Shown piece after piece: positions 1 through 17,647 of a DNA stretch of 44,410 bases; position 1 is the stretch's first letter, and each line of letters begins with the position of its first letter. The stretch lies in NCBI GenBank assembly GCA_019100305.1, contig JAHRHW010000001.1, positions 1 through 44,410 of the forward strand, written 5' to 3'. A model generated the notes under the pieces. The model was not told where the DNA came from and made no database searches. It worked only from the letters and a program-made list of their open reading frames with translations. The position numbers were made by a program, and so were the translations under genes. Source of the stretch: Candidatus Thiodiazotropha taylori (GTDB lineage: Bacteria; Pseudomonadota; Gammaproteobacteria; Chromatiales; Chromatiaceae).

Positions 1-894
1 AGCCTGCTGGTCACCCTGCACAAGGAGGCCTGGGGTGGCGAAAAATTCTTTCAACTGTTGCAAAAGCTTCTGCAGAATCCGGCCAAGAATCTTGAGCTGC
101 TGGAGTTGATGTATGTCTGTCTCTGTTTCGGTTTTGAAGGTCGCTATCGCCCTCTTCCGGATGGCTATGCACAACTGCAGACCCTGAAAGACAATCTCTA
201 CCGCACCCTGCGCAACCACCGGGATGAGTATGAACGGGATCTCTCAGGACACTGGCAGGGAGAACCACTGAAACAGAATGCTCTGGTTCAATATGTGCCA
301 CTTTGGGTGGTGATGGCGATATCCGGTGTGGTCCTGATGTTGATGTTCTCCGGGTTCAGCCTCAGCCTGAATGTAAAATCCGATCCGGTACACGCCGAAC
401 TGCACAACATTGCCCGAAATGTACAAACGGTGGTTGAACGTGCCCCGCCGCCGCCTCCCAAACCGGAACTTTCACTCAGGGTTCTGCTCGCCAATGAGAT
501 CACTCAAGGATTGGTCAGCGTTGCGGAAAATCACCTGGAGGGTACGGTCAGAATTGCCGGGGACGGTCTGTTCGCTTCAGGCAAAGTGGCGGTCAACAGT
601 CAATTCCTGCCACTACTGAATCGTATCGCAGCGGCAATGGATAGACTCGAGGGGCAGATTGTGGTGGTCGGTCATACTGACAACATTCCCATACGCAGTC
701 TTCGCTACCCCTCCAACTGGCACCTCTCGAGGGCACGTGCTGAATCCGTGGCCAAACTGTTGGCGCTGGATTTAAGCCAACCTGCAAGAATTCAGAGTGA
801 AGGGCGCGGCTCGGCAGAGCCCCTGGCATCCAATGACACAAAAGAGGGACGTGCACGTAACAGACGTGTGGAGATCACTCTTGTAAAACAATAG
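1..894 (+). CDS. tssL: T6SS membrane-complex protein TssL/DotU fused to C-terminal OmpA/MotB peptidoglycan-binding domain (5'-truncated by window edge)
   Basis: Frame 1 is open from base 1: SLLVTLHKEAWGGEKFFQLL is the DotU signature, followed by LCFGFEGRYR and one TM helix (VPLWVVMAISGVVLMLMFSGF). OmpA-like motifs VVGHTDN, NWHLSRARAESV and RARNRRVEI follow. Lies directly upstream of tssM. Confidence 0.95.
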   Translation, partial: SLLVTLHKEAWGGEKFFQLLQKLLQNPAKNLELLELMYVCLCFGFEGRYRPLPDGYAQLQTLKDNLYRTLRNHRDEYERDLSGHWQGEPLKQNALVQYVPLWVVMAISGVVLMLMFSGFSLSLNVKSDPVHAELHNIARNVQTVVERAPPPPPKPELSLRVLLANEITQGLVSVAENHLEGTVRIAGDGLFASGKVAVNSQFLPLLNRIAAAMDRLEGQIVVVGHTDNIPIRSLRYPSNWHLSRARAESVAKLLALDLSQPARIQSEGRGSAEPLASNDTKEGRARNRRVEITLVKQ

Positions 895-908
895 GTATTG
901 CGTACACC

Positions 909-3900
909 ATGCAGGCAATATTGAGAATCATAAAGAACCGCTGGTTTGTCGCCATCCTGGGACTGATCGCCATCTCGTTGATCATCTGGTTGATCGGTCC
1001 CCTGTTTGCCTTTGCCGGCAGTGAACCCCTTGCCTCACCCATGGCCAGACTGATTGCCATCGGCGTGATCATTCTGCTCTGGGCAGCCAATCAGGCCAGA
1101 CGGCTGTTTGCAGCACGCAAGAAAAACCAGCAGATGCTGGAATCCGTGGTCGGTCAGAAAGAGCAGACCTCCGTATCAACCCAGGAGTCGGCAGAAGAGG
1201 TGCAGATTCTTGGGCAACGGCTGGACGATGCCATCCGCATACTCAAAGAGTCGAAACTGGGGGGTAAACAGGATAGCCAATATCTCTACCAGCTCCCCTG
1301 GTATATGTTCATCGGTCCTCCAGGAAGCGGTAAAACCACCGCCCTGCTCAACTCAGGGCTGCACTTTCCACTGGCGGACAAGCTGGGTAACGATGCGGTA
1401 CAGGGTATCGGTGGAACCCGCAATTGTGACTGGTGGTTCACCGATGATGCGGTGCTGTTGGATACCGCAGGCCGCTATACCACCCAGGACAGTTACGAAG
1501 AGGTGGACCGGGCCGCCTGGATGGGCTTTCTCGATCTGCTGAAAAAACATCGCAAACGTCGACCGATCAATGGCGCTCTGGTGGCGATCAGCGTGGAGGA
1601 CATTCTACAGCTGACCGACATTGAGAGAATCAATCATGCTAAGGCGATACGCCTGCGGGTCAAAGAGCTGATCGATCACTTCGGTATCCGCTTCCCGATC
1701 TACGTTCTGTTCACCAAGTGCGACCTGCTGGCAGGCTTCAATGAATTTTTCGAAAACCTGAGTCGGGATGAGCGTAACCAGGTCTGGGGAATGACCTTTC
1801 CGCTCAACGAAAAAGGCAGTCAGGATGATGTAATCAACCACTTCAAGGGTGAGTTCAAAGCCCTGGAACAGCGTATCGATGCCCGCCTGATGGACCGTCT
1901 TGAACAGGAACGGGATGTCAAGCGCCGGGTTTTGATCTACTCCTTTCCGCAACAGTTCAGCGCACTGCGTGAAGCAGCGGAGACCTTCCTCCAGGAAGCG
2001 TTCAGCGAGAACCGTTTCCAGGAAACCCCAATGGTCAGGGGTATCTACTTCACCAGCGGCACACAGGAAGGCACGCCGATCGATCGTCTGCTTGGATCGA
2101 TGGCCCAGGAGTTTGGCCTTAATCGTCAGATCGCCCCAGCCTTTTCCGGTACCGGTCGCAGTTTTTTCATCAACCGACTGTTCAAGGACTTGATATTTGC
2201 CGAATCCCATCTGGCCGGTATCAATACCCGGGTTGAGAAACAGCGGGCCTGGTTACAACGGATTGCCTATGTGGGTGCCATCTCCCTGGCTCTGCTGGCC
2301 GGCATCGCCTGGTTTACCAGCTACAGCCGCAATCAAAGCTATATCGATCAGGTTGCCATTCAGGCCAATGCCGCAGACGAGAAAGTCAACGCAGTTGCCG
2401 CTGACGATCTGACATTGACCAATGTGGTACCCGCCCTGGAACTGGTGCGTCGGATTCCCGGCGGCTATGAGGATCAGGAGAAAGAGATCCCCTGGCTGAT
2501 GGGGCTCGGCCTCTACCAGGGTGATAAGCTGGGCAGTGAGGCGATCAATGCCTACCACAACAGCCTAAAGAACCTGTTCCTGCCACGCATTATTCTCAGC
2601 CTTGAAAATCAATTGAGTCGGCAGGGTAACAACCCTGACTATCTGTATGAGGCGCTCAAGGTCTATCTGATGTTCGATGATAAGGAGCATTACGATGCCG
2701 AGACTGTGAAGACCTGGATGCTGTTGCAATGGCAGCTCAGCCTGCCTGGTGGGGAAAATGCCCAGGCCCGTCAGGCCCTGGCGGGCCATCTGGACGCCCT
2801 GCTTAGCCAGATGCCGATGCCGCCAACCATCCCGTTGGATGAGGCGCTGATCAGCCGGGTACGCAATGACCTGCTGAGAGTACCGCTGGCAGACCGGGTC
2901 TACGACCGGATGAAACGCACTACCGCCGGTGGTTCGATCGCCGCCTTGCGACTGACCCAGGAGATTGGCCCCGATGCGGAACTGGTCTTCAGTCGACGCT
3001 CCGGTGAACCACTGGATAAGGAGATCCCCAGCCTGTTTACCTATGAGGGATATCATAAACTGTTCCTCAAGGATCACCTGTCGATCGCCAATAAGTTGCT
3101 CGAGGAGAAGTGGATCCTCGGCCCTGATCTGGAAAAGATCATCGGCAAGACCGACCTGGCCAGGCTCAGCAGCCGGGTCAAGGATCTCTATTACGCCGAG
3201 TACATCCGTATTTGGGAACAGCAACTGGCTGACATACGGGTGAAACCGTTCAACAATATGCGTCAGGCTGTAGAGGTGTTGAATGTTCTTTCCGGGCCTA
3301 CCTCGCCACTACGCCGCTATCTGAAGCTGGTGCAGGAGCAGACCACCCTCTCCCGCCTGCCGGGAGGTGCACAGAAGGCAGCTGAGCTGGCGGCTGAGCA
3401 TGGATCGGGCATTACCCGGCAGTTGGCTTCAATCCTTCAGGTATCACCCGATGAGAGCCAGCAAGAACCTGAAAAGCAGCTGCTGAGTACACCAGTGGAT
3501 CAACACTTTGCTGATCTGAACCGAATGATCAATGCTCAGGAGGGTGAGCAGGCTCCGCTGGAGAGAACCCTGGAGATGCTCAACGAACTGTATGCCCACA
3601 TGAACTCCATTGCCTCTGCCGGCAATCAGTCGAGTCAGGCATTCAACGCTGCACGGGATCCTGCATCCGGCGGTGTGATCAGCCGCCTGAAACTGGAGGC
3701 GCAGCGTCAACCCGGCCCACTGGCCGATATGATCAATACCCTGGCGGACGGCAGTTCCAATCTGACCGTCTCGGGAGTAAGAAGTCATCTCAACTCAGTC
3801 TGGAACACCCAGCTTCTGCCTTTCTGTCAGCGCAGTCTGTCGGGACGCTATCCACTGGAGCGCAACAGCGTACGCGAAGTGACGATCAGTGATTTTGGAC

Positions 3901-4487
3901 GATTCTTTGGTCCAGGCGGAATGATGGAGAACTTTTTCAATACCTACCTGATCGACTTCGTCGATACCTCACGCAGAGTTTGGCGTTGGAATGCGGCTGG
4001 CAATAAAACCCTGGGCATACCCACCAGCACCCTGCGACAGTTCCAACGGGCAGCGGTGATCCGGGACGCCTTCTTCAGCGGCAGCAGCCCAGAGCCGAAG
4101 ATCAACTTCGAAATCAAACCGCTGAGCATGGACACCACGATCACTCAGATCACCCTGTTGCTCAATCAGCAGCGGGTCAGATACAACCATGGGCCGACCC
4201 GTTGGAACCGACTCACCTGGCCGGATGATTCCGGCATCAGCGACGCCAAGATCCTGCTTGCACCACCGGCAGGCAATAAACCCTCCGGTCTGACTGAGGA
4301 TGGACCCTGGGGCTGGTTCCGCATGATCGATCAGGCTGCAAGTGAAGCCACCAACACCCCTGAAACCATCAACGTGACCTTTGATGTGGGTGGTCGACAA
4401 TCCCGTTTTGCACTACGCGCAAGTGGTGCACTCAATCCATTCCAGTTAAAAGAATTGGCAGACTTCCGGTGTCCGAACAGACTTTGA
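909..4487 (+). CDS. tssM: T6SS membrane-complex protein TssM/IcmF
   Basis: 1192 aa with N-terminal TM helices, YQLPWY..IGPPGSGKTT Walker A, GTRNCDWWFTDDAVLLDTAGRY, RGIYFTSGTQEG, a third TM helix and C-terminal GPWGWFR. Confidence 0.97.
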   Translation: MQAILRIIKNRWFVAILGLIAISLIIWLIGPLFAFAGSEPLASPMARLIAIGVIILLWAANQARRLFAARKKNQQMLESVVGQKEQTSVSTQESAEEVQILGQRLDDAIRILKESKLGGKQDSQYLYQLPWYMFIGPPGSGKTTALLNSGLHFPLADKLGNDAVQGIGGTRNCDWWFTDDAVLLDTAGRYTTQDSYEEVDRAAWMGFLDLLKKHRKRRPINGALVAISVEDILQLTDIERINHAKAIRLRVKELIDHFGIRFPIYVLFTKCDLLAGFNEFFENLSRDERNQVWGMTFPLNEKGSQDDVINHFKGEFKALEQRIDARLMDRLEQERDVKRRVLIYSFPQQFSALREAAETFLQEAFSENRFQETPMVRGIYFTSGTQEGTPIDRLLGSMAQEFGLNRQIAPAFSGTGRSFFINRLFKDLIFAESHLAGINTRVEKQRAWLQRIAYVGAISLALLAGIAWFTSYSRNQSYIDQVAIQANAADEKVNAVAADDLTLTNVVPALELVRRIPGGYEDQEKEIPWLMGLGLYQGDKLGSEAINAYHNSLKNLFLPRIILSLENQLSRQGNNPDYLYEALKVYLMFDDKEHYDAETVKTWMLLQWQLSLPGGENAQARQALAGHLDALLSQMPMPPTIPLDEALISRVRNDLLRVPLADRVYDRMKRTTAGGSIAALRLTQEIGPDAELVFSRRSGEPLDKEIPSLFTYEGYHKLFLKDHLSIANKLLEEKWILGPDLEKIIGKTDLARLSSRVKDLYYAEYIRIWEQQLADIRVKPFNNMRQAVEVLNVLSGPTSPLRRYLKLVQEQTTLSRLPGGAQKAAELAAEHGSGITRQLASILQVSPDESQQEPEKQLLSTPVDQHFADLNRMINAQEGEQAPLERTLEMLNELYAHMNSIASAGNQSSQAFNAARDPASGGVISRLKLEAQRQPGPLADMINTLADGSSNLTVSGVRSHLNSVWNTQLLPFCQRSLSGRYPLERNSVREVTISDFGRFFGPGGMMENFFNTYLIDFVDTSRRVWRWNAAGNKTLGIPTSTLRQFQRAAVIRDAFFSGSSPEPKINFEIKPLSMDTTITQITLLLNQQRVRYNHGPTRWNRLTWPDDSGISDAKILLAPPAGNKPSGLTEDGPWGWFRMIDQAASEATNTPETINVTFDVGGRQSRFALRASGALNPFQLKELADFRCPNRL

Positions 4488-5263
4488 ACTCATTGCAAAA
4501 CGAGGACTTTCCAGGCCTCTATGGTAAAATTCCATCACTGGGGGATTTTGTCACCCGCCGGCTTCCACGCGGCTTCATCGCCCCTTGGGAGACCTGGATG
4601 CAGGAGGCGATCGCCAACAGCCGGGAGCAGCTGGGGGACTTCTGGCTGGATAACTATTTGACCAGTCCGATGTGGCGTTTCGCGCTCTCTCCAGGCATCT
4701 GTGGCGAACAGGGGTGGGCAGGAATCCTGATGCCCAGCGTCGATCGGGTTGGTCGCTACTACCCGTTTACCCTCGCAGCAAAGCTCGATCCGAAGTTTAA
4801 TCTTTTTCTGTTCATGGAGGAGTCGGAGAGTTGGTTTGCCCGTTTGGAAGAGCTTGCCCTATCCTGCCTGGAGGATGATTTCCAGATGGATGCGTTGGAG
4901 CAACAGCTGCGACAGCTCAGCACACCAACGGCGGAGCGTGAAGAGCTGTCTCACCCGGATGCACCCGTTACACCGCTGAACAATGCCTGGCACGCTCAGT
5001 TGCAGGAACAGTCCGCATTGCGTGGTCTCTATCCCCTGTTCATGCCCCACCTGATGAAAAAACTGTTGTTTGCCTACAGCATTTGGTGGACACAGGGTTC
5101 AGAGCGGATCTCCCCCTCCCTGTTGATCTGTCAGGGACTGCCACAGATAAGAGGAGCCAGTGCCTTGATCGATGGCGCTTGGACAGAGCATGGCTGGGAA
5201 GAGATAGAAACCGGTGCCTACAGCATGGGATTCGCCACTTCAGAAACACCAGAATCCTTATGA
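4469..5263 (+). CDS. tagF: T6SS-associated regulator TagF/ImpM
   Basis: Motifs GLYGKIPSLGDFV and MPSVDRVGRYYPF. GTG start overlaps the tssM 3' end, and the gene sits between tssM and pppA. Confidence 0.93.
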   Translation: MSEQTLNSLQNEDFPGLYGKIPSLGDFVTRRLPRGFIAPWETWMQEAIANSREQLGDFWLDNYLTSPMWRFALSPGICGEQGWAGILMPSVDRVGRYYPFTLAAKLDPKFNLFLFMEESESWFARLEELALSCLEDDFQMDALEQQLRQLSTPTAEREELSHPDAPVTPLNNAWHAQLQEQSALRGLYPLFMPHLMKKLLFAYSIWWTQGSERISPSLLICQGLPQIRGASALIDGAWTEHGWEEIETGAYSMGFATSETPESL

Positions 5264-6015
5264 CCCAGAATCGATTCTATTGGGTCTCTGCCCACTTGAC
5301 TGACAAGGGTAAAGTGCGCAGCATCAATGAAGATGCCTGCCTCGATCGGGCTGACCTGGGAATCTGGGTGGTTGCCGATGGCATGGGTGGGCATGCTGCC
5401 GGGGATCTGGCCTCAGGCATGATTGTGAGTGAATTGAAATCGCTCGACCCAGGTAACTCAATTGGTGAGCTTGCCGGAAACGTTGAACAAAAACTGCATC
5501 AGGTCAATCAACACCTGCTGTTGGAATCCCATCAACGTGGCGGTGAGATCATCGGCTCAACGGTGGTTACCCTGCTTGCCTATGATGGATATTGCATCTA
5601 TCAATGGGCTGGAGACAGCCGTATCTATCTCTATCGTCGCGGAAATCTGAAACAACTCAGCCGCGATCACAGCCAGATTGAGGAGATGATCGAACAGGGT
5701 CTGGTCACCTCCGATCAAGCCGAGCAATCATCCATCGCCAACTACATCACCCGGGCAGTTGGTGCTGCAGAGGTTCTGGAGTTGGATGCGGAGATGGTGG
5801 AGCCCTGTGACGGTGACCTGTTTTTACTCTGCAGTGATGGCCTGAACAAAGAGGTCAAGGATGCTGAAATCGCTGAAATTCTAGGGCGTTACAGCTTTCA
5901 GGATGCAATACAACAACTCATTAGCCTGGCCATGGACAGAGGCGCCAGAGATAATGTCACACTGGTGATGGTGCAAGCGAAAGCCACACAAAACCTGCAG
6001 CCCGAAGAAATCTAA
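5260..6015 (+). CDS. pppA: PP2C-family Ser/Thr phosphatase PppA
   Basis: Motifs RSINEDA, VADGMGGHAAG, WAGDSRIY, LLCSDGL and ARDNVT. True start is probably ATG 5260 (ATGA overlap with the tagF stop), not 5083. Confidence 0.92.
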   Translation: MTQNRFYWVSAHLTDKGKVRSINEDACLDRADLGIWVVADGMGGHAAGDLASGMIVSELKSLDPGNSIGELAGNVEQKLHQVNQHLLLESHQRGGEIIGSTVVTLLAYDGYCIYQWAGDSRIYLYRRGNLKQLSRDHSQIEEMIEQGLVTSDQAEQSSIANYITRAVGAAEVLELDAEMVEPCDGDLFLLCSDGLNKEVKDAEIAEILGRYSFQDAIQQLISLAMDRGARDNVTLVMVQAKATQNLQPEEI

Positions 6016-6080
6016 TCTGATATATTGATCGACATGCCAATCCAGCTAATTGCTACATGCAGCCAAAAGGAATCTAAGAA

Positions 6081-7442
6081 GTGAAAGAGGTAACCAGCTT
6101 TCGGGATTTCTGCAAATTCCTATTCATTGTCATTTCTGTGCTGGCTCTGAGCGCCTGTCAGTTGACCGGGCCTAAAAAAGAGGCTCAACCGGTAGCCATG
6201 GAGCCGGAACCAATAGAAGAGACTATTCCTCCACCAACCGATTCACTGACGCCCAATCAGCGGGTACGAAAAGCGCTACAGCATCTGCAGCAGGGTGACT
6301 ATGAGAATGCCCGCAACCAGTTGAACTGGGCCTTGATGGATGATCCCGATCATAAGCGTGCCAACCACCTGCTGGAGCAGATGGATGCTGACCCGATTGA
6401 GTATCTTGGACTTAAAAACTTCTATTACGATGTGCAGCCGGGTGATTCGCTATCCCTGATTGCCAAGAATTTTCTCGATGACCCTTATAAATTCGTGATT
6501 CTTGCCAGATACAACGACCTGGACAATCCCAGCAAGCTGGCTCCGGGTCAACGTATTCGTGTGCCGGGGATTATGCGGGAAAAGCCGAAAATCAAGGCAA
6601 AACCCAAAACCAAGCGGAAGCCTGATGTGGTATTGACTGAGGAACCCGTAAAGAGTGAAGCCAAAACCGACACCTCTACCGACCCGGCTGCCACATCTTC
6701 TCAGGCAGATGAGCCAGTGCCGTCAACAGCGACTGAACCGGTTACAGAAGTCGACCCACCTTCAGAGACAGCGCTGGCAGTGGAGCCAGAACCTGAACTC
6801 GAACAGTTGGAAGAGACAGCGAACACACTTCCTGAGAGCCCCCCAAACAGTGATGACACACTGAGCTCTGCCCGGCAGTTGCATGCTGAAAAAGACCTGC
6901 CAGCAGCCATCTATCTGCTGGAGAGTGAAAACAGCAGTAACCCAGAAGCTTCAGAGGTACGTACCCAGCTGGCAAGTTACTACACCGAGTATGCAAACCA
7001 ATTGATCAGAGAGGATGACTTGGAAAGTGCCCGGCAGACCTTGGAAAAGCTGATCATCCTTGATGCCTCCGACAACAACGCTATCAATCAACTCATCTAT
7101 GTGGAAGACAAACTTGAAGCCCGCAAGCTGCTGCAAAAAGGAGAGAATGAAGAGCGTGGTGGACAGTATCAAACTGCCTATCGCACTTATGGCCAGGTAT
7201 TGACCTATGATCCTGACAATCAATCCGCACAAGAGTCTCAAATCAGAGTGAGAAATCAACTGACTGACAGTTACCATCGTCAGGCCATGCAGCTGTTTCG
7301 CCGACAGGAACTGGATGAAGCCATCGGATTCTGGAATAAGATCCTTGAACTTGATCCAAATCATTCGCTCGCCCCGGGTTACAAAGCACGCGCCCTGGAG
7401 ATGAAGCAACAGCTTCAAAAGATAGACTCGAAGCCCAATTGA
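6081..7442 (+). CDS. Lipoprotein with TPR, LysM, Pro/Glu/Thr-rich linker and C-terminal TPR repeats
   Basis: Lipobox LALSA-C. LysM segment YDVQPGDSLSLIA...NDLDNPSKLAPGQRIRVP. TPR-like ends VLTYDPDNQSA and ILELDPNHSLA. Confidence 0.85.
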   Translation: MKEVTSFRDFCKFLFIVISVLALSACQLTGPKKEAQPVAMEPEPIEETIPPPTDSLTPNQRVRKALQHLQQGDYENARNQLNWALMDDPDHKRANHLLEQMDADPIEYLGLKNFYYDVQPGDSLSLIAKNFLDDPYKFVILARYNDLDNPSKLAPGQRIRVPGIMREKPKIKAKPKTKRKPDVVLTEEPVKSEAKTDTSTDPAATSSQADEPVPSTATEPVTEVDPPSETALAVEPEPELEQLEETANTLPESPPNSDDTLSSARQLHAEKDLPAAIYLLESENSSNPEASEVRTQLASYYTEYANQLIREDDLESARQTLEKLIILDASDNNAINQLIYVEDKLEARKLLQKGENEERGGQYQTAYRTYGQVLTYDPDNQSAQESQIRVRNQLTDSYHRQAMQLFRRQELDEAIGFWNKILELDPNHSLAPGYKARALEMKQQLQKIDSKPN

Positions 7443-8111
7443 CAGGCTGTATAGAAGTGGCTGGCTGGAGGCATTAATTCAGTCAGTAACTGAAAATGTC
7501 ATATCAGCTACAGCTATTGCATCAGCAGAAGTACTGATATCCAGGCTGAGTTAACTATGCTTCATTAGCCGCTGTAGCAGACAAAAATGGTGCTCACTTT
7601 GCTGTATGCAGTCATTTTCCAAATCATCATTTTAAATATCGCCCGCTGTTAACCCCTACAACCTGCACCGATTCTTTTCAGCAGTAACAAGTGCTCATGA
7701 ATTACCTGACACTTTGTCACACTATTTCTAACTTAATCCTATGCTTATCACGCTCTAAACCGGGATGAGTTGATTCAATACTGCACGCATGAATTTAATT
7801 CCTATTTTGGTTGGTTATGTTTAAAACAAACCAGTTTTAATCACATTTTTTCAAGGCGATGAGCTATGCTTATGTTCTATTGACTTTACTCAGTTGACTT
7901 CTTCAATAGAGCATGAATAATACGCTGCAAGTATTGTGATCTATTGGATAAATTTCTCAATTTCACAATATTTTTTGGAATTGTTTGCGGGGTAATCTCG
8001 AACGGAATCATGCTGAAAGCAGAGTTTTTGCTTATCGTTATGCAATCTTTGATGGAACCATCAGTTCGCAGCAATCGATTTGATATTGATATCTAGCAAA
8101 ATGGACTTAAT

Positions 8112-8846
8112 GTGCTTGAAGCACTTTCGACAACAAATATAATAATTGCCGCAATCATCATCTGTTCTGCCTATCTGGTTAGAGGTATTTCAGGTTTTGG
8201 CTCAGGTCTGATTGCTATACCTTTACTTGCATTGATGCTGCCTTTGTCAATCGCAGTACCTTTGATTGTGTTACTCGATTACATTGCATCTGCAAGCCAC
8301 GGTGTAAAGCATCGTGAAGCGATTTGCTGGCGGGATATTTTGCCACTGCTCCCCTTTTCGATCATCGGGGTTTTGATGGCTCTCTATCTGTTCAACTCAG
8401 TCGATGCTCAGGTACTTCGTTATGGCTTGGGAATCTTTCTGCTATTGTTTGCTGTCTATTCACTTTTCAGCATAACACCCAACGCTGCACCCTCTCTGCT
8501 ATGGGCGGCCCCAGGTGGAACTCTGGGAGGTTTCATTGGCACACTTTTCGGTACCGGCGGTCCGTTTTATGTCCTCTATCTGAAACTCAGAGGACTCAAC
8601 AAAACAGAATTTCGGGCGACATTTGCGACCATTTTTCTGATCGATGGCATTGGACGCTTGATTGGTTACATGGCAACCGGATTCTTTGACCTTGCGTTAC
8701 TCAAAGTCGTTGCGGTTGCGATTCCTCTGATGGCCATCGGTATGTACATTGGTGGTCAAATACACAGCAATCTCTCTCAGGAGACGTTTCAAAGGGGAAT
8801 CAGCATACTGCTGATTATCAGTGGAATTTCCCTGTTGTTAAAGTAG
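8112..8846 (+). CDS. TauE/SafE (TSUP) family membrane transporter
   Basis: 244 aa, almost entirely hydrophobic, with the duplicated motifs GISGFGSGLIAIPLL and GTLFGTGGPF typical of the family. Confidence 0.85.
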   Translation: MLEALSTTNIIIAAIIICSAYLVRGISGFGSGLIAIPLLALMLPLSIAVPLIVLLDYIASASHGVKHREAICWRDILPLLPFSIIGVLMALYLFNSVDAQVLRYGLGIFLLLFAVYSLFSITPNAAPSLLWAAPGGTLGGFIGTLFGTGGPFYVLYLKLRGLNKTEFRATFATIFLIDGIGRLIGYMATGFFDLALLKVVAVAIPLMAIGMYIGGQIHSNLSQETFQRGISILLIISGISLLLK

Positions 8847-8854
8847 CCTGACAA

Positions 8855-9622
8855 TTACTCAAACTGGTTAACCAAAGAGCCTATTCCGTCAATTCTTATC
8901 TCGACCGTGGCCCCCTGAGACATAGGTCCCGCACCCAACGATGTACCACAGGCAATCACATCTCCTGGATTGAGCGTCATATCCCTCGAGAGACGGCTGA
9001 CAATCTCTCTTGGGGAGAAAAACATGTCATCAACCGGATAGTTCTGATGCTCTACACCATCGACCAGTGTTCGGACAGTCAGTGAGTCAACATCGAGTCC
9101 CGTAGCAACTACCGGCCCTACAGCCCCGAAGGTGTCAAAGCTTTTTGCTCGGGTCCATTGAACAAATGACGGATCCTCTTTCATCAGACCTCTAGCGGTA
9201 ACGTCATTGACGCAGGTGTATCCAAAAATGTACTTATCAGCCTCATCTTCGTTGATATTGCTGCAACGCGCCCCGATCACTATGCCTAGCTCGCCTTCAA
9301 ATGCCACAGGTCCATGATAGGTTTCCGGTTGTCTAATTGTCTGTCCGCTCGCCAGAAATGAACCATTGGCCTTCATGAAATAGAGCGGATGGTTTGGCTG
9401 AGACCAGCCCTCTTTTGCTGCCCTTGAGCGGAAATTGTTCCACAACCCAATCATTTTCGACGGCTGAGTGGGAATTAACAGATTAATATCCGCAACCGGT
9501 AAAAATTCACCCGTCGCTTTTGACTCCTGAAACATATCCCCTTGATAAACAGCAATATGATCATTCCTTAAGGTGCCAAATCCATGCTTTCCCAAATACT
9601 CAAACCTGACCCATAGCTCCAT
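8855..9622 (-). CDS. Fumarylacetoacetate hydrolase family protein
   Basis: Motifs FEGELGIVIG, GYTCVNDVTAR, RAKSFDTFG and TLNPGDVIACGT. Confidence 0.92.
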   Translation of the reverse strand: MELWVRFEYLGKHGFGTLRNDHIAVYQGDMFQESKATGEFLPVADINLLIPTQPSKMIGLWNNFRSRAAKEGWSQPNHPLYFMKANGSFLASGQTIRQPETYHGPVAFEGELGIVIGARCSNINEDEADKYIFGYTCVNDVTARGLMKEDPSFVQWTRAKSFDTFGAVGPVVATGLDVDSLTVRTLVDGVEHQNYPVDDMFFSPREIVSRLSRDMTLNPGDVIACGTSLGAGPMSQGATVEIRIDGIGSLVNQFE

Positions 9623-9976
9623 AATCCATCTCCCTAATCAAAAAGAACAGCCCAGTATCGCCACCTTCAACAGTTACAGCTTTAAATTTCAGGCATAACA
9701 AGCTGATTTAATAGAAATAGACCTTTGTATGAAAACTCTGATCCTGACCTATCAAATGTGCCTATCCACGATCACTGATGTTGTAATTGAGTGATCGAAA
9801 TTCAAAAAAAGAATTCCGTTCCCAGATTATCAATCTTACACGGAATTTTATTCACATGTTGCTGTTTTTCAAAGCCCTTTAGCTTCAGAAGCACAGAAAT
9901 GAGTCGCTAACTCAGGCAGATGGATATGTCACTGGTTACGTTGTTACAGGAGTGTAAGTTGATTCGTAACTGAAGT

Positions 9977-10225
9977 TTGTTTGACCTTTGGCTATCAAAT
10001 ATGATGGAACAACTCTACAAAATAGCACTTACTAGTTTTGCCATAGGCACTCTGTTTCTGCCTTTGTTGCTATTTGTTAATTACCTCGAAGCCCGTTATC
10101 CGGCTACCACTCAACTCACCAGTCTGGCGTGGTACGAGATGTTCATCATTCTCATGTTGTTGGTAATTCCCTTCGGCACCTTAAAGCTCCTTCGCGTACC
10201 CTGGAACGATAAAGAACCTCAGTGA
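9977..10225 (+). CDS. Possible small two-TM membrane protein (start may be ATG 10001)
   Basis: Short ORF with two hydrophobic stretches filling an otherwise empty gap. No recognisable motif. Confidence 0.35.
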   Translation: MFDLWLSNMMEQLYKIALTSFAIGTLFLPLLLFVNYLEARYPATTQLTSLAWYEMFIILMLLVIPFGTLKLLRVPWNDKEPQ

Positions 10226-10258
10226 GCAGAAATTCTGCTCTATCCATTGCTGCTTGAT

Positions 10259-11185
10259 CTATTGGGCCTGGCGGTTTTCAAACGTATCGATCCTCAGTTG
10301 AGTCCGTTTATCATTGGGATCAAACTTTAATGCACTCTTCCAAAGTTCGATCGCATTGACCGGTTCGGAACGGACACTTCTCAATCCTAACAAATAGAGC
10401 TCCTTAGCAAACTCTTTTCGAGCAGCCAACAGCTTCTTCAGAAATTTATCATCATTGTTGAGTGACTCTTCTGCTGCAGCCAAGTGGTCCAGCGAACTGT
10501 CATAATCCGATTCTCCAAAGGAAGCACGAGCCTGAACAATCCGAACATTCACAAGCATCTCTTTGAGCTCCGTGTCACTTGGATACTTTGTAATATGTTT
10601 CTCGAGTTCTGCAATATAACCCTCAACATCATTAGCTCGGTTTTCCGCCTGTAAAATGGCCTGACGTGAATAGATATATCCCTCATCTTCTGTCTGTCGA
10701 TTCTTTTTACGAAGACTGCTCTTACGATAACGCTGGGAGAGCGCCACTTTCTGCTTCATTTTCTTATGCAGTTGCTTCCTATTGATATCACGCAATCTGT
10801 CAAAGGCAGCTCTGTAATTTGGATCGAGGGTCAGTATTTTAAAATACAACACCTCCGCACTTTGCAATTTACCTCGCGCATACTTCTTCTCGGCTATCGA
10901 CATCAATTTATCTGTTTTCTCTGCGATCAGTTTTTCCAGCCTCTTGACCTCTCTGCCCGGTTTGGTAGTGTCTACTGATACTGTACGTGCAATACGATAT
11001 TCCATCAGTGCACTGTACAGATCCCCCTTCTGCTCATGCTTGGCTGCCGATAGCATCAAACGCTTTGGATCCGAGTAACTTCCTGGATTACTACTCTTTA
11101 CCACTTGTCTGTTTGCACACCCCAGACTGGATAAAATAAACAGAGTGACAAGTAACAGCGAAAAAGTGTGCAGAAAACTGATCAC
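10259..11185 (-). CDS. TPR-repeat lipoprotein
   Basis: Lipobox LSSLG-C and TPR-like segments KILTLDPNYRAA and WKSALKFDPND. Start is 4 nt downstream of the deacetylase stop. Confidence 0.8.
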   Translation of the reverse strand: MISFLHTFSLLLVTLFILSSLGCANRQVVKSSNPGSYSDPKRLMLSAAKHEQKGDLYSALMEYRIARTVSVDTTKPGREVKRLEKLIAEKTDKLMSIAEKKYARGKLQSAEVLYFKILTLDPNYRAAFDRLRDINRKQLHKKMKQKVALSQRYRKSSLRKKNRQTEDEGYIYSRQAILQAENRANDVEGYIAELEKHITKYPSDTELKEMLVNVRIVQARASFGESDYDSSLDHLAAAEESLNNDDKFLKKLLAARKEFAKELYLLGLRSVRSEPVNAIELWKSALKFDPNDKRTQLRIDTFENRQAQ

Positions 11186-11189
11186 AACA

Positions 11190-12263
11190 TCACCGGGTCT
11201 GGAAGGTTTTCAGCTTTGCAACAAAATCGTCCATGCCCCGGTCTCCAAAGATCATGCTTCTGTTCAGTAGATAAGGATAGTTAAATGCTGCATTGGCAGT
11301 GGGCTGAACTGTCAGACCGAGCAATAGACCATTTGCCTTTAACTCTTCAATCACCTGAGGGTTAGTATCGCCAAATGGATAGGCATAGTATTTTGGTGCT
11401 TTTCCCAATGTACTTTCCAATTTACGGCTGGGTATGCGAACTTCGTCCGTGATTCTCTTGCGATACTCAGATTTACTTTCCCCAATGCCATTGAGCGCGA
11501 GATTCGAATGAGTCTTGGAGTGTGGTTGTAAACTGATCAAACCACTGGCATTCATGGCTTTCAGTTCTTTTGTTTTCAATCCGCCGTTATTCATATAATC
11601 ACTGTAGACAAACACCGTTGCAGGAAAATTGAACTTTTTCAGCAGTGGATAGGCGATTGTATAGATGGATCGATGACCATCATCTATGGTTAACACCACT
11701 GATCGCTTTGGCAAGCCACGCTCACCTTTCAAAAAACCATACAGATCCTCAAGGCGAATCACTCTGTAGTCATGCTGCTTGAGATAGGCGAGCTGCTGTT
11801 CGAACTGTTCCGCACTGACTTCCAGTCGACCGCCCTTGTTACCAAAACGGTGATAGCACAATATGGGAACTGTCTGATAACCTTCAAATTCGAAGCCTAT
11901 CGGATTGTCATTCTGCAGTGGAATAATGATCTCATTTCCAGATGCAATGGATCGAGGCTCGTTGGCATCTTCGATCAGCCAGCCGAGACTCTCATCACCA
12001 AGATAGCGACGTGCAAGCTCACTGGCATCCTCATTCCCCACCCTGAGTACGACAAATTCGCTATCCCGCGCCAGAATTTCAGTTGTGACAGGACGTGACG
12101 AACAACCCGCACCCAACAAAAAGAAGAGTGAGAGAAATAAACTGGCAATCAGTAACTTCGATGGTTGATCAGCGCTCATTGACGTCGCTGTTTGCAGTCT
12201 GCCAGATTGATTCACAGACCATGCGCCTTTAACTGTGGCCGTAGGCCGAAGAGAGAGTCTCAT
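11190..12263 (-). CDS. Polysaccharide deacetylase (CE4/NodB fold) lipoprotein with N-terminal degenerate LysM-like domain
   Basis: Motifs VPILCYHRF, VLTIDDG, HSKTH and YAYPFG. Lipobox LLGAG-C. LysM-like segment ASELARRYLGD...WLIEDAN...GNEIIIP. Alternative start ATG 12179. Confidence 0.88.
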   Translation of the reverse strand: MRLSLRPTATVKGAWSVNQSGRLQTATSMSADQPSKLLIASLFLSLFFLLGAGCSSRPVTTEILARDSEFVVLRVGNEDASELARRYLGDESLGWLIEDANEPRSIASGNEIIIPLQNDNPIGFEFEGYQTVPILCYHRFGNKGGRLEVSAEQFEQQLAYLKQHDYRVIRLEDLYGFLKGERGLPKRSVVLTIDDGHRSIYTIAYPLLKKFNFPATVFVYSDYMNNGGLKTKELKAMNASGLISLQPHSKTHSNLALNGIGESKSEYRKRITDEVRIPSRKLESTLGKAPKYYAYPFGDTNPQVIEELKANGLLLGLTVQPTANAAFNYPYLLNRSMIFGDRGMDDFVAKLKTFQTR

Positions 12264-12269
12264 AACAGC

Positions 12270-12540
12270 CTAGGGCCTGTTAACACTAATCCAATCGGCC
12301 CTGCTGGGGCTATTTTTTCGTCCAGCAAGGCAGAATGAGCGACGTGTAGTTGTTCTACATGAGCGAATGATAACGCCGCTGGGCGGAAAAATAGCCCCAG
12401 CCCTCCGGGTTGCGCCTGAAAAAGCGCCACTCGGCGTTGCTCGTCGTTCATTTGGAATCACCAAACCTCTCTCCTCGCGCCTTGATTGGCGCTTTTTCAG
12501 GCACAACAGGGCCAATTGGATTAGTGTTAACAGGCCCTAG
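12270..12540. mobile_element. MITE family A, full-length copy flanked by CTAG
   Basis: Perfect 26-bp terminal inverted repeat including CTAG (CTAGGGCCTGTTAACACTAATCCAAT ... ATTGGATTAGTGTTAACAGGCCCTAG), extending further with mismatches. Two long internal hairpins, no transposase. The right CTAG contains the kinase stop codon. Confidence 0.9.
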
Positions 12541-14342
12541 TTTCTTTTTATGATTCTTGTCGCATCATCCATATCATCGTCTAGCTCCTGACTATCATCC
12601 ACGCCGATTACATCATTCAAAGGCTGCTTTGCTGGCGCAATCCGTGTCTCGTCATCATCTTCGGGCTCTGGCTCAATTTGTGGTTGGGTCTGAGTTGGCG
12701 TTTGTGTATCGAGGTCGGATTGGGTCTCATCCTCTGTCACTACCTCTGCCTGCTGCTTGTTCTGCAACTCCTCTGCCATCCTATTGTAATCTTTAAACAT
12801 CAAGCCCAGTTCGTCATTCCGTTCCTGGCGTATCCGATATGCATAGTTACCCTGACTGATATGCCGCATCGCCTTTCTGAGGATTTTCATCGGCAGCGTG
12901 ATACCAGTCGCCAACAGATAGGCCACCACAACCACAGTCAGAACAACAGCCAGCAAAAGACCGAGCATGGTATAAAAAGTCAGATCTGCCGCAGCTATCA
13001 GTGGGGTTTGAGAGAGACCTAACTGTACACCACCGATTGTTTTATTCTGAAAGATCAGCGGTGCTTGAAAATCAAAGACTTCCTCTCCCTGCCACTCGGC
13101 TTCGGTGATAACGATTCCCCCCTCCTCTCTCAACACCTCGCCAGAGAGGGATTGTTCCAGAGTTTCACCCACCTCATCCAGTGAAGTACTTGCCCGTAAT
13201 ACCCGCCTGTGATCAAAGATCTTCAGGTAACTGATCTGTTGACGATCGTTGATCTCCTGTACAAAAGTCTCAATAGCCACCCAGTCCTGTATCAATACAG
13301 CTTCTGCGCTTTCAATGGCGATAAAATCAGCCAAAGAACCACCTGAGTCCAAGGTCAGTTCCGTCATTGTCTCTACTTGCTTTTGATAGACCAGATAGGA
13401 ACCTAAAATCATAGCCAGCGAGACGACCATTGCCATCACTGCCGTCCATTTGATACGCAACGGCAGGATCTTTGATTCATTGATATGCTGCTGTTTTTCA
13501 TCGATCTCATGGATTACACGGCGCAGCGCATCGGCAAGTTCCTTACCTGTTTGAAAACGATTGGCAGGATTCTTGTTGAGCAACTTCTCGACAATCGCTT
13601 TCAGACTTTGAGGTATGTCCGTCTTCTTGATATCGATCGGTGCCGGCTCTTCCTGTACGATCTTCATCAACAGGGAGGTCAGGGTCTCCGACACAAACGG
13701 TTTAACACCCGTAAGTAATTGATAGAGAATCACACCGAGTGAAAAAAGGTCGGATCGACCATCCACTTGCTGCCCTTCAACCTGTTCCGGTGACATATAT
13801 TGAGGCGTACCGAGGACAGAACCTATCCTGGTTTTATGCTCTTTGTTCGGAGCATCGATCCTGGCGATTCCGAAATCCGTTATACGCAGTGAGTGACCAT
13901 AACCGGGGGAGATGATGTTACCGGGTTTGACATCCCGATGAACAATTCCCCGGGCATGGGAATAGTCGAGCGCTTCGGCCAATTGGATGCCGTAGATAAC
14001 CACATCCCGGGTTGCAATGTCCTGCTCACTATCCATGATCTCCTCAAGGGTTTGTCCCTCAAGAAACTCCATGGCGATATAGGGTCCCTGTTCCACTTCG
14101 CCGACATCGAAAATGGTAACAATATTGGGGTGGGTCAGCTTGCCTGCAGCTTTGGCCTCCTGCAGAAAGCGATATCGATATTCCGGATCAACAGCACACT
14201 CACCACGCAGCAGCTTGATGGCCAGGGGCCGATTGATTTCAGGATCAAAAGCTTTGTAGACAATCGACATTGCGCCTTCGCCTACCTCTTCCACCAACTG
14301 GAATCTTCCGATCGATTCCGGCATAGGATATTGGTTATCCAA
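12537..14342 (-). CDS. Hanks-type Ser/Thr receptor kinase: kinase - TM - extracytoplasmic domain - TM - HAMP - acidic tail
   Basis: Kinase motifs GEGAMSIVY, AIKLL, HRDVKPGN, DFGIAR, GTPQYMSPEQ and DLFSLG. Two TM helices, then HAMP TLPMKILRKAMRHISQGNY...NDELGLMFKDYNRMAEEL. TTG start preceded by AGGAGAGG. Confidence 0.93.
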   Translation of the reverse strand: MDNQYPMPESIGRFQLVEEVGEGAMSIVYKAFDPEINRPLAIKLLRGECAVDPEYRYRFLQEAKAAGKLTHPNIVTIFDVGEVEQGPYIAMEFLEGQTLEEIMDSEQDIATRDVVIYGIQLAEALDYSHARGIVHRDVKPGNIISPGYGHSLRITDFGIARIDAPNKEHKTRIGSVLGTPQYMSPEQVEGQQVDGRSDLFSLGVILYQLLTGVKPFVSETLTSLLMKIVQEEPAPIDIKKTDIPQSLKAIVEKLLNKNPANRFQTGKELADALRRVIHEIDEKQQHINESKILPLRIKWTAVMAMVVSLAMILGSYLVYQKQVETMTELTLDSGGSLADFIAIESAEAVLIQDWVAIETFVQEINDRQQISYLKIFDHRRVLRASTSLDEVGETLEQSLSGEVLREEGGIVITEAEWQGEEVFDFQAPLIFQNKTIGGVQLGLSQTPLIAAADLTFYTMLGLLLAVVLTVVVVAYLLATGITLPMKILRKAMRHISQGNYAYRIRQERNDELGLMFKDYNRMAEELQNKQQAEVVTEDETQSDLDTQTPTQTQPQIEPEPEDDDETRIAPAKQPLNDVIGVDDSQELDDDMDDATRIIKRN

Positions 14343-14621
14343 ATCACCTCTCCTACAACTGCGCTATCAAACACAGGAAGGCCTTCTTCCAAGCCCTATG
14401 AGGCAGACTTCACTCACGGCTAAGTGGACCCGTAAAACACCGGGTCTAAACCTCAGCAGCTATGCCAAAGGACCCAATATTTTACTTCACATCCTGCAGC
14501 CACCTGGTGGTGGCGGTTTTTGCCTTAGTTCACTATACAATATCGTCCATTTTCCTGAAAGAGTGTAGCAAATCAACAAAAACTCATTGACGTAACTCAT
14601 TTATTTGATTAGCTTTCTTAT

Positions 14622-14721
14622 CTAAGGGTAGTTAACACTAATCGAGTTTCTTCTGTAATGCCTTGTTGGACGCCAAAACAGCTCCAGCAGGACTTATTGG
14701 AATAATGTTAACAGGCCCAAG
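14622..14721. mobile_element. Degenerate, internally deleted, inverted copy of MITE family A
   Basis: 14659-14721 matches the reverse complement of 12270-12332 at 52/63 positions without gaps (manual count). 14622-14643 matches the terminal repeat at 18/22. Confidence 0.8.
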
Positions 14722-14805
14722 TGCGACGCATTGTGAAAAGGCCTTGTCGTATGGATAAACAGCCTGAAAATTCTGCTTCTCAGGCAAATAATAAGCGGGC
14801 ATCTC

Positions 14806-15594
14806 ATGACAGACTCTTTCGACATCCCAAGACTGATAGAACTCCGAAAGCTTACCCGCTCAGTATCTGAACGGATTGAGACACAACTCAAGTCCTATTT
14901 GTCTACCCTGGCACCACTTTTTTCACCTCAACCGATCCTCGGCGAATACATCCGCGGGGGCTCCAAATCCTCAGTCAAAGGGGCAGAGAAGAACTTTCAA
15001 GAGCTGAAAAAGCACTACCTCACCATTGCCAGGCAAAAGCCCTACTCACTGGACAGTGATATCTCACCACCGTTGGATATTTTTGCAGCCACGCCCGCAT
15101 TGACACCGGTCACATACCCCTACACAGCTGAAAATGAGGGTAAATCCGCAGAGCTCACGGTCACCTCCCCTCTGCAGTGGATACTCTCCTATCCGGGTAT
15201 GGCGCCAAATCAGATAGCCGATCTGTTGAAAGGCAACCGAAGTCAAATTCAGGATGAGTTGGCACATACCTTACTGCAGTGCCTGACCCTGAACCTTGTC
15301 CTGGAGAAACAGACCGGCCTGAGGAACCTGCTCAAGGATCTGCGTTTTAAACTGGAGACGATTCAAATGGACAGCCTGGGTGATCTGCCTGTGTTACTGA
15401 TCTCTTGTCCGATTTCCACTGAATTGCCCTCAGATGACGTAATCATTCAGAATACGGAAATCTCTGGGATTCCATCTTTTGAAGAGATTATCAAAATCAA
15501 TGACATCAGGAGCATGTCTGACCCGCTACGGGAAACACTGCTCGGGATAACCCAGGAAGTGACACCTGAGATCTATCAGGAACTCGTCTCTTAG
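14806..15594 (+). CDS. Soluble hypothetical protein, divergent from the kinase operon
   Basis: 262-aa ORF with normal composition, no signal peptide or TM, and no motif I can name with confidence. Confidence 0.8.
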   Translation: MTDSFDIPRLIELRKLTRSVSERIETQLKSYLSTLAPLFSPQPILGEYIRGGSKSSVKGAEKNFQELKKHYLTIARQKPYSLDSDISPPLDIFAATPALTPVTYPYTAENEGKSAELTVTSPLQWILSYPGMAPNQIADLLKGNRSQIQDELAHTLLQCLTLNLVLEKQTGLRNLLKDLRFKLETIQMDSLGDLPVLLISCPISTELPSDDVIIQNTEISGIPSFEEIIKINDIRSMSDPLRETLLGITQEVTPEIYQELVS

Positions 15595-16429: not shown

Positions 16430-17647
16430 TTATCTGTAATTGTAGTAGCCTTGATAGGGGCCAGGACCGTAGGGTCCGTAACCCGGGTTAGGATTGCGCC
16501 ACATACGTGGCGGTGGAGGCATCATCGCTTCGTGCAGCTCTCTCTCAGCCTGCATTCTGTTCTGCATGGCTTCCATTTCCGCCTGTGCCGCATCCCTCAA
16601 CTCATCGAACTCTTTAAGGATTTTTGTAACAGACTCTGTGTGCATTTCATGCACACTCTGCTGTTGATCATCTTGAGCAGAAGCAGTTTCCTGGCCACTC
16701 TGTTGCGCAGCTGCCCCTGTCTCAGCCGATGACTGATCCGCTTCACCTGATGCCTCTGCTGCTGCCGGTTGGCTTAACACTTTGACCTCGGGTGACATGC
16801 TCGACCCTGAGACCAGATTACCCGAACTTTCGCCAGAAACATCTGCAGCAGAAGGCGCCTCACTCTGACCACTCTCAGCTTCAGCCACACTCGCTTGCTG
16901 ATTGTCTGTGCCGGCTTCACCGGTAGCCGCTGCTGGTGCGGATGAGGTGGCAGATTGATCTGTCGTGGACGAAGCGGCAGCCTGATCTGATGTAGATGAG
17001 GCGTCTGAATCCGAGGCTGTGACCTCAACCTGAGTGGAATCCGAAGCTTCGCCTGTTGATTGGTCAACCGGGCTTTTCGCCAGTGAACGGATATACATGA
17101 ATCCCAGAATAATAATAACCAGCCAGAAAATGACTTTTACCCAAAAGCCACCTGAGCTCTTTGTTGTTGTCGACATGGATGTCTCCTCCGAAGTTGACTC
17201 TTTCTCTTCTATTTGTTTCTGTACCACCACATTTGATGATGGTGTCTTATTGCTCTCAGCGGCTGTGGTTGAAGTGGAGGCTTGAGCACCCGCCGCAGCC
17301 ACGGCGGTCGGTGTCGCAGCTTTAGCTTCAGTAGCGGCTTCCGGCTTGTCAGTTTGCGGGGTTGCTGCAGTTTCCGTGCTTGTCGCTTTAGCTTCAGTGC
17401 CGACTTCCGGCTTTTCAGTCGGTGCGGCTGTTGCGATTTTCGCACTTGCAGCTTTACTACTCTCTGTCTTTTTGGCTGAGACCTTCTTCTTGGCAGCGGC
17501 TTTTTTCTTTGCTGTCGCTTTCTTCTTGGCTACCTTTTTCTTGGCAACTTTCTTTTTCGCAGCTTTCTTTTTAACTGTTGTTGCTGTCTTTTGAGGTTGT
17601 TTTTCTACGCTTTCATCAGCGTTGTTAGTCTCATCAGCCATCTTCAC
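16430..17647 (-). CDS. Bitopic membrane protein with Lys/Ala-rich histone H1-like N-terminus, low-complexity linker and Pro/Gly/Tyr-rich tail
   Basis: KKKAAKKKVAKKKVAKKKATAKKKAAAKKK, one TM (FWVKVIFWLVIIILGFMYI), a Ser/Ala/Glu-rich stretch, a helical segment and the tail PPPPRMWRNPNPGYGPYGPGPYQGYYNYR. Confidence 0.75.
   Translation of the reverse strand: MKMADETNNADESVEKQPQKTATTVKKKAAKKKVAKKKVAKKKATAKKKAAAKKKVSAKKTESSKAASAKIATAAPTEKPEVGTEAKATSTETAATPQTDKPEAATEAKAATPTAVAAAGAQASTSTTAAESNKTPSSNVVVQKQIEEKESTSEETSMSTTTKSSGGFWVKVIFWLVIIILGFMYIRSLAKSPVDQSTGEASDSTQVEVTASDSDASSTSDQAAASSTTDQSATSSAPAAATGEAGTDNQQASVAEAESGQSEAPSAADVSGESSGNLVSGSSMSPEVKVLSQPAAAEASGEADQSSAETGAAAQQSGQETASAQDDQQQSVHEMHTESVTKILKEFDELRDAAQAEMEAMQNRMQAERELHEAMMPPPPRMWRNPNPGYGPYGPGPYQGYYNYR

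Follow-up and report, generated by a model that had tools for sequence, protein, structure and literature searches.

A receptor kinase and three lipoproteins beside tagF and pppA

The window analyzed here, a 44,410-nucleotide stretch of Candidatus Thiodiazotropha taylori DNA that makes up the whole of contig C105 in a 525-contig, 4.23-Mb genome, carries the last genes of a type VI secretion system (T6SS) cluster and, close to them, four genes encoding a membrane receptor kinase and three lipoproteins with LysM-type, deacetylase and TPR domains. These four genes constitute one conserved module, here called the cassette. Gene calls and Pfam agree with an earlier note on this DNA that tagF (4469-5263, plus strand; TagF_N PF09867, E 1.9e-49, and TIGR03373 above its cut-off), which encodes the post-translational T6SS repressor, and pppA (5260-6015, plus strand), a PP2C Ser/Thr phosphatase gene whose ATG overlaps the tagF stop, are followed by a LysM-TPR lipoprotein gene and not by a kinase gene. 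This 453-aa TPR-LysM-linker-TPR protein (6081-7442, plus strand) occupies the slot that holds a kinase in nine relatives. The convergent operon that the note placed about 3 kb away was likewise found. On the minus strand it comprises a 601-aa Ser/Thr receptor kinase (12537-14342), a LysM-like CE4 deacetylase lipoprotein of the IcaB/PgaB type (11190-12179 from its likely start, the frame being open to 12263) and a 308-aa TPR lipoprotein (10259-11185). The operon end at 10259 lies 2.8 kb from the end of the LysM-TPR gene at 7442, and the kinase gene lies 6.5 kb from pppA. The tauE and FAA-hydrolase genes in between (8112-9622) are passengers, seen in Thiodiazotropha loci only. The closest named homologues of the kinase, of the CE4 protein and of a 262-aa protein discussed below come from Ca. 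Thiodiazotropha, symbionts of lucinid clams.

In the receptor, a Pkinase domain at residues 15-265 (E 7e-50) with intact Hanks-type motifs (K43, HRD, DFG) is followed by a transmembrane segment (TM) at about 295-313, an sCache_3_2 domain at 338-448, a second TM at 459-477, a HAMP domain at 477-527 and an acidic tail with two D-D-x-T-R-I motifs, the two TMs anchoring the protein in the membrane. The D-x-T-x-I tail motif is present in just 21 of 56 kinases and is thus not essential. Facing the periplasm is a single Cache domain (PF17203, above cut-off at E 3.5e-7). A model of this sensor region built from a 72-row alignment (predicted local distance difference test score, pLDDT, 77) predicts a PDC/PAS-like fold between the two TMs, as expected of the sCache_3 family. 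The model matches the periplasmic domains of CitA, DctB and WalK with Z-scores of 14.3, 14.4 and 12.6 and root-mean-square deviations of 2.9, 2.7 and 2.4 over 121, 143 and 130 residues, respectively. WalK, CitA and DctB have the same TM-sCache-TM-HAMP fold, whereas here a Ser/Thr kinase at the N-terminus, or else a class III cyclase, takes the place of a histidine kinase as output. Only G43 and G146 are invariant across 72 sensors. A single-sequence AlphaFold model of the whole kinase (pLDDT 38.7) was not used, and no PpkA chain is among the top 60 sequences that the kinase domain matches in the PDB, which has no bearing on pathway membership.

All three lipoproteins carry a lipobox with Ser, Ala or Gln at position +2, and Asp is found there in none of the 51 CE4 homologues in which the Cys aligned. 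In E. coli, the +2 residue decides the membrane to which a lipoprotein is sorted and, following this rule, the cassette lipoproteins are predicted to reside on the outer membrane. The LysM-TPR protein (lipobox Cys26) combines TPRs, a LysM domain at 116-162 (E 2.8e-8) and C-terminal TPRs, the last of which is among its best-conserved parts; the linker of roughly 95 low-complexity residues ahead of the latter should be long enough to reach the inner membrane. The 308-aa TPR protein (lipobox Cys23) is its paralogue without LysM. Kinase-type loci usually have both genes, and cyclase-type loci a single TPR-LysM-TPR gene. The CE4 protein (lipobox Cys54 in the 357-aa frame) belongs to the CE4 family through its NodB domain (PF01522, E 6.7e-22), with residues H110, D166, D167, H220 and H224, numbered from the likely start, invariant in 53 of 53 sequences. 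Its LysM-like N-terminus gives no PF01476 match in the window copy; matches occur at the same place in four homologues (P0222, P0245, P0248 and P0251), and the LysM-TPR profile built here cross-matches it. The protein shares with IcaB, PgaB, BpsB and Bacillus BA0330-type CE4 enzymes the same arrangement, the intact Asp-Asp-His-His set and the N-terminal catalytic His, but scores below the PgaB/IcaB cut-offs (122 against 321.9 and 85.3 against 248.35). It differs further from these enzymes in its N-terminal LysM-like domain and in that the window contains no polysaccharide synthase gene. Three copies from cyclase-type Desulfobacterota loci (L104, L106 and L122) lack the catalytic and metal His motifs, and are possibly pseudo-enzymes with a binding role only.

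Between the kinase stop and the CE4 start lies a 271-bp miniature inverted-repeat transposable element (12270-12540) with terminal inverted repeats, CTAG flanks and internal hairpins, which may uncouple the operon. Copies of 230 nt or more occur on seven contigs, and a degenerate remnant is found upstream of the kinase (14622-14722). Contigs from four RNA-library runs were dropped as transcription evidence, since they span genes and intergenic DNA alike and hence do not show transcription.

Conservation of the cassette and its linkage to T6SS genes

Scanning GTDB species genomes with a LysM-CE4 alignment yielded 582 confirmed stretches, the best 80 of which were analyzed. In 72 of the 75 loci with enough flank, across several phyla, LysM-CE4 is immediately preceded by the gene for a TM-sCache-TM-HAMP receptor, and in all 75 assessable loci the next gene on its downstream side encodes a TPR protein, which sustains the view of the earlier note that kinase and lipoproteins form one unit. 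The three misses are L096, L119 and L103, the kinase of the last having the same topology and a diverged loop. None of seven control CE4 genes without the LysM-like domain has a cassette or T6SS gene among its BLAST-annotated neighbours. Moreover, 30 LysM-CE4 representatives are extended by TPR(-LysM) parts and, since 29 of them lack a signal peptide at the junction, these are true fusions; an apparent kinase-CE4 fusion (L067) retains the CE4 signal peptide and lipobox and was not counted. The cassette is rare, with one full-length match in 400 Pseudomonadota genomes besides the present one. Isolates carrying it are Paraglaciecola arctica, Hahella sp., Mitsuaria sp., Rhizobacter sp. and Ningiella sp.

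Two outputs are found behind the same sensor. The receptor has the kinase form in 53 of the 80 loci and ends in a class III (adenylate/guanylate) cyclase in 21, mostly from Rokubacteria and Desulfobacterota as named in the records; two loci were classed as having other kinases (L096 and L103), and four have no receptor in the DNA examined. A Cache profile built from kinases only gives cyclase-type cassette receptors 33-70 bits, as against at most 26 for non-cassette Cache proteins. Hence, the lipoproteins go with the sensor and not with the T6SS.

Locus neighbours were annotated by BLAST and with profiles built from the proteins of this genome, so that distant genes may be missed. Within 10 kb of the 53 kinase-type loci, core T6SS genes occur in 15, FHA/TagH genes in 27, PP2C genes in 23 and any of these in 37; for the 31 loci of at least 19 kb, the counts are 13, 18, 20 and 27, respectively. 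All three classes are at zero in the 21 cyclase-type loci. At the genome level, TssC or TssM turns up in 28 of the 45 kinase-type genomes and in 2 of the 21 cyclase-type ones, the TssC baseline being 43 of 251 Pseudomonadota. Eight loci of the 80, namely six from Thiodiazotropha and two from Paraglaciecola, are not part of this comparison and, the genomes being related and many of them incomplete, no statistical test is given. The neighbourhood analysis proposed in the earlier note thus upholds the co-occurrence of kinase-type homologues with T6SS, FHA or PP2C genes and with CE4 and TPR genes, but not a link specific to the T6SS, given the cyclase-type loci and the kinase-type genomes in which neither TssC nor TssM was found.

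Two genomes illustrate the linkage. On a single strand, G056 has the order fha, kinase, CE4, TPR, tssJ, tssK, tssL, tssM, which puts the cassette inside the T6SS operon, and in G120 the kinase, CE4 and TPR genes abut a tagF-pppA fusion and LysM-TPR. In a family sample of 121 genomes, 37 with TssM, the Cache receptor is found in five (three genera), all with TssM. Of the 33 TssM-positive genomes searched, 9 (G010, G015, G040, G043, G058, G063, G092, G096 and G107) have a kinase gene in the same direction as tssM, 4.5-5.5 kb further downstream, and in none of these 9 was the Cache receptor found; in the window, the LysM-TPR gene sits at that same distance from tssM. In several relatives this slot is filled by giant kinases of 1300-1800 aa (L145:676-6015, L028:3721-8766), the one in G059 having a single TM and, on its periplasmic side, a very long stretch that looks helical.

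Kinase-type loci where no T6SS was found carry cyclase-FHA genes (L061, L066, L073, L074), an FHA-SpoIIE gene (L072), a lone FHA gene (L091) or TagH with PppA (L059, L062, L063, L067, L068). The constant feature is a kinase paired to an FHA protein. In L062, L063, L067 and L068, TagH, a gene for the TagH C-terminus only and PppA stand beside the cassette, TssC and TssM not having been found; these may be T6SS switches without a T6SS, or relics.

In the present genome, where TssK, TssA and TssM have one copy each, the T6SS cluster is split across three contigs. C231 holds vgrG, a divergent TssC-like gene, tssA and the start of tssB, and C501 holds tssB, tssC, hcp, tagJ, tssE, tssF, tssG, clpV, fha, tssJ, tssK and the start of tssL, including its conserved N-terminal D-x-T-x-I motif. 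The window continues with the C-terminal part of tssL (1-894, plus strand; DotU and OmpA by Pfam) and with tssM (909-4487, plus strand; Pfam IcmF domains). The gene order is identical, and unbroken, in G087, a complete genome from this genus. The genome has five Pkinase genes, and a search for a kinase gene in the tssA-to-pppA interval found none; the cassette kinase is encoded with pppA, fha and tagF in the T6SS locus.

Several other genes at these loci deserve mention. The 262-aa protein (14806-15594, plus strand) was found in 9 of the 121 family genomes, all nine with TssM, and abuts T6SS genes (tssJ, tssA, the clpV region, a TssC-like gene or LysM-TPR) in five of six genomes from other genera. 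It has no Pfam or NCBIfam match, no usable ESM Atlas match and only short, unconvincing PDB profile matches, and is a candidate new T6SS accessory protein. Upstream of tssA, a VipA-VipB fusion under the TssC cut-off (L007:1694-3082, on C231) is possibly a TagB/TsmB-like sheath stabiliser. In G087, as in some loci of the same genus, LysM-TPR is followed by Peptidase C39-TPR and DUF6627 genes (L019:15792-17225), neither of which was found in this genome. Further along the window, at 16430-17647, lies the gene for a 405-aa protein whose N-terminus is histone-like and rich in Lys and Ala and whose C-terminus is of low complexity; it has one TM and no Pfam match, and is conserved in Thiodiazotropha.

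A putative wall-sensing switch and its alternatives

We hold, with slightly more confidence than doubt, that the kinase, the LysM-deacetylase and the two TPR lipoproteins make up a wall-sensing switch through which Fha or TssL becomes phosphorylated, with PppA undoing the modification. The lipoproteins would grip the peptidoglycan from the outer membrane and, upon a change in wall or envelope, a tethered TPR domain would touch the Cache domain of the kinase. Thus activated, the kinase would phosphorylate Fha (or TssL), and PppA would reverse this. In the least supported step, the deacetylase would mark or reset the wall locally, de-N-acetylated glycan binding LysM differently. The peptidoglycan ligand, the signal direction and the substrate threonines are all putative. 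Peptidoglycan is favoured because two LysM-type domains and an N-acetylglucosamine (GlcNAc) deacetylase face the periplasm, and because the sCache domain of WalK senses wall cleavage products (PMC7299342). Binding to the periplasmic domain of PpkA has precedents in RtkS and TssW (PMC6082577, PMC12607579).

Of the sensor-lipoprotein modelling suggested in the earlier note, one pair, chosen before folding, was carried out. ESMFold2 lends weak support to a complex between a dimer of Cache domains and the TPR domain at the C-terminus of the LysM protein (0.55, against 0.06 for the best control), with contacts agreeing at 94% or more between runs and a partner pLDDT of at least 89. Of 157 solved complexes, 116 attain the mark used, as do 2 of 215 mismatches; at 0.60 or under, however, no more than 18 of the 157 do so, along with both mismatches. 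These counts hold only roughly for the alignments made here. The TPR-Cache contact is thus a predicted one. Candidate substrate sites are Fha T369, which lies ahead of a conserved NPLK motif and is unchanged in all 23 TagH matches that cover the site (3 of 26 do not cover it), and the D-x-T-x-I-x-P-x-P-G motif at the TssL N-terminus, present in 7 of 7 copies. The published targets are Fha Thr438 in Serratia (PMC6082577), Fha T640 in Acidovorax (PMC12607579) and TssL Thr14 in Agrobacterium (PMC3953482).

Several observations weigh against this switch. Neither TssC nor TssM was found in 17 of the 45 kinase-type genomes tested, many of them incomplete metagenome-assembled genomes (MAGs), and three Thiodiazotropha loci (L045, L048, L050) show no T6SS gene within the flanks examined. 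In G059 and G564 the lipoproteins stand beside unrelated kinases, with no close Cache receptor found, and G088, 94% complete, has LysM-TPR after pppA, LysM-CE4 and receptor not having been found. The CE4 domain is closest to the poly-N-acetylglucosamine deacetylases IcaB and PgaB, not to PgdA. No enzyme follows the HAMP domain, and control of an N-terminal kinase by HAMP is unexplained. Kin are not independent, and the 80 loci were those that scored best in a longer list. Lastly, a second kinase family, represented here on contig C240, is matched in 15 of the 121 family genomes, all 15 with TssM; being T6SS-linked as well, it deprives the cassette kinase of its place as sole candidate.

The cassette is part of a wider envelope-signalling cassette, and a broader interpretation can be put forward tentatively, as possible rather than probable: a widespread and so far undescribed trans-envelope sensor in which a wall-bound LysM/deacetylase/TPR complex would both read and mark peptidoglycan, and a Cache-HAMP receptor would drive plug-in outputs, either a cyclic nucleotide (Rokubacteria, Desulfobacterota) or phosphothreonine on FHA proteins, T6SS firing included.

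The persistence of the lipoproteins at the T6SS loci of G059 and G564 could also mean that they are a scaffold and not a sensor, wall-anchored proteins that stabilise and position the kinase and the T6SS membrane complex, with local de-N-acetylation preparing the wall and activation being constitutive. Activation of this kind is described for TssW, which holds PpkA and TssM in position, and for RtkS, which stabilises PpkA, no signal being known for either (PMC12607579, PMC6082577). Nonetheless, 21 loci pair the same lipoproteins with a Cache-HAMP-cyclase and no T6SS gene nearby, which points to signalling rather than apparatus building, and we regard a scaffold as unlikely.

The C240 kinase raises a different question, for it could be the one that phosphorylates the T6SS here. 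At 490 aa and with a single TM at 355-373 it has the topology of PpkA; in G087 and G009 a relative is encoded some 16 kb past vgrG, and here C240 is linked to the vgrG end through autotransporter pieces on C390 and C247. It is also 43-50% identical to the post-pppA kinase of G058, and the genome has an additional PP2C-FHA pair on C397. Were it the working PpkA, the cassette kinase would signal envelope stress to another FHA protein and be a mere neighbour of the T6SS. On the other hand, of the 12 genomes with a full-length relative, 6 also have a post-pppA kinase, so that the C240 protein looks like an extra kinase; it travels with a caspase-like gene, and in G056 it is on a separate contig while the cassette is within the T6SS operon. 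This assignment thus seems quite unlikely. The earlier note had named as adverse to its proposal a canonical ppkA in the upstream part of the cluster together with kinase-operon homologues generally unlinked to T6SS loci: the C240 kinase and its G087 relative supply a kinase of PpkA topology, but the cassette did not prove unlinked. The C240 locus (L003:12667-17863) comprises the single-pass kinase, a small hydrolase-like protein and a Sel1-caspase gene.

An enzyme-coupled receptor, in which acetate or fragments bearing glucosamine, released by the deacetylase, would bind the Cache pocket without any protein contact, draws on the CitA/DctB/WalK fold, on the sensing of wall cleavage products by WalK (PMC7299342) and on CE4 motifs that are complete in 73 of the 80 loci. 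A shared fold proves no function, however, no charged pocket residue is invariant and the TPR proteins go unexplained, which makes this version improbable. LysM and CE4 proteins act on GlcNAc polymers in general. Sensing of host chitin or gill mucus to switch on the T6SS during colonisation, or de-N-acetylation as armour against incoming muramidases, is nevertheless most improbable, although in three hosts Hcp ranks within the 100 most highly expressed genes of Ca. T. endolucinida (PMC13137333). Carriers of the cassette are commonly MAGs and isolates of Rokubacteria, Desulfobacterota and Burkholderiales whose record titles name no such host, nothing indicates surface exposure and armour needs no fixed receptor gene; the host glycans invoked in the earlier note find no support.

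Relation to known T6SS inputs and significance

The downstream part of the T6SS threonine phosphorylation pathway is known, and the cassette is a real and conserved variant of its input that has not been described. With the TagQRST-PpkA-PppA-Fha1-TagF system of the Pseudomonas aeruginosa H1-T6SS it shares a membrane Ser/Thr kinase, a PP2C phosphatase, a TagH-type Fha and TagF in an H1-like cluster with tagJ and, by prediction, input through an outer-membrane lipoprotein, whereas here there is no TagR-like protein and the input consists of LysM, CE4 and TPR lipoproteins. No TagR was found in the genome, in line with the earlier note, which recognised no TagQRST genes in the window: the only genome match to the FGE-sulfatase family is EgtB (TIGR03440 above cut-off). 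The tssA-pppA interval holds no unassigned candidates for TagQ or TagST, although no family search for these was made. Further, OM lipoproteins that are often wall-bound or long-tethered control inner-membrane signalling proteins in YfiBNR, RcsF-IgaA and LpoB-PBP1B; these differ from the cassette in their domains, and here a deacetylase belongs to the input and the output is swappable.

PpkA of P. aeruginosa and A. citrulli has one TM and a periplasmic C-terminus (PMC12607579), as opposed to the two TMs, Cache domain and cytoplasmic HAMP of the cassette kinase. RtkS-PpkA in Serratia and TssW-PpkA-Fha in Acidovorax, the latter with a single-pass kinase, share with the switch proposed here a species-specific envelope protein acting on the periplasmic domain of the kinase, but through one accessory gene instead of three. 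Neither RtkS nor TssW is described as a glycan-binding enzyme, and it is by these descriptions, not by sequence, that they are set apart from the cassette. No published description of the cassette input was found in the literature searched, chiefly the main texts of papers outside the subscription journals. The available portion of a 2026 review of T6SS accessory factors (PMC13584744) has no occurrence of LysM, deacetylase, HAMP or TPR, and lucinid-symbiont papers, in the parts available, mention the T6SS but not the cassette genes (PMC12278820, PMC13137333).

The activators of T6SS kinases outside Pseudomonas are largely open, the signal for RtkS being unknown and Azoarcus having no TagQRST (PMC6082577, PMC6423157), and the cassette names a concrete input made up of a metal enzyme, two glycan-binding domains and a Cache domain. 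Its cyclase version makes it a general envelope-signalling module. If the broader trans-envelope sensor put forward above is real, it would be the first T6SS trigger to read the sugar state of the wall through an enzyme. For the lucinid symbionts, which express Hcp in their host, the cassette suggests how their only T6SS is controlled.

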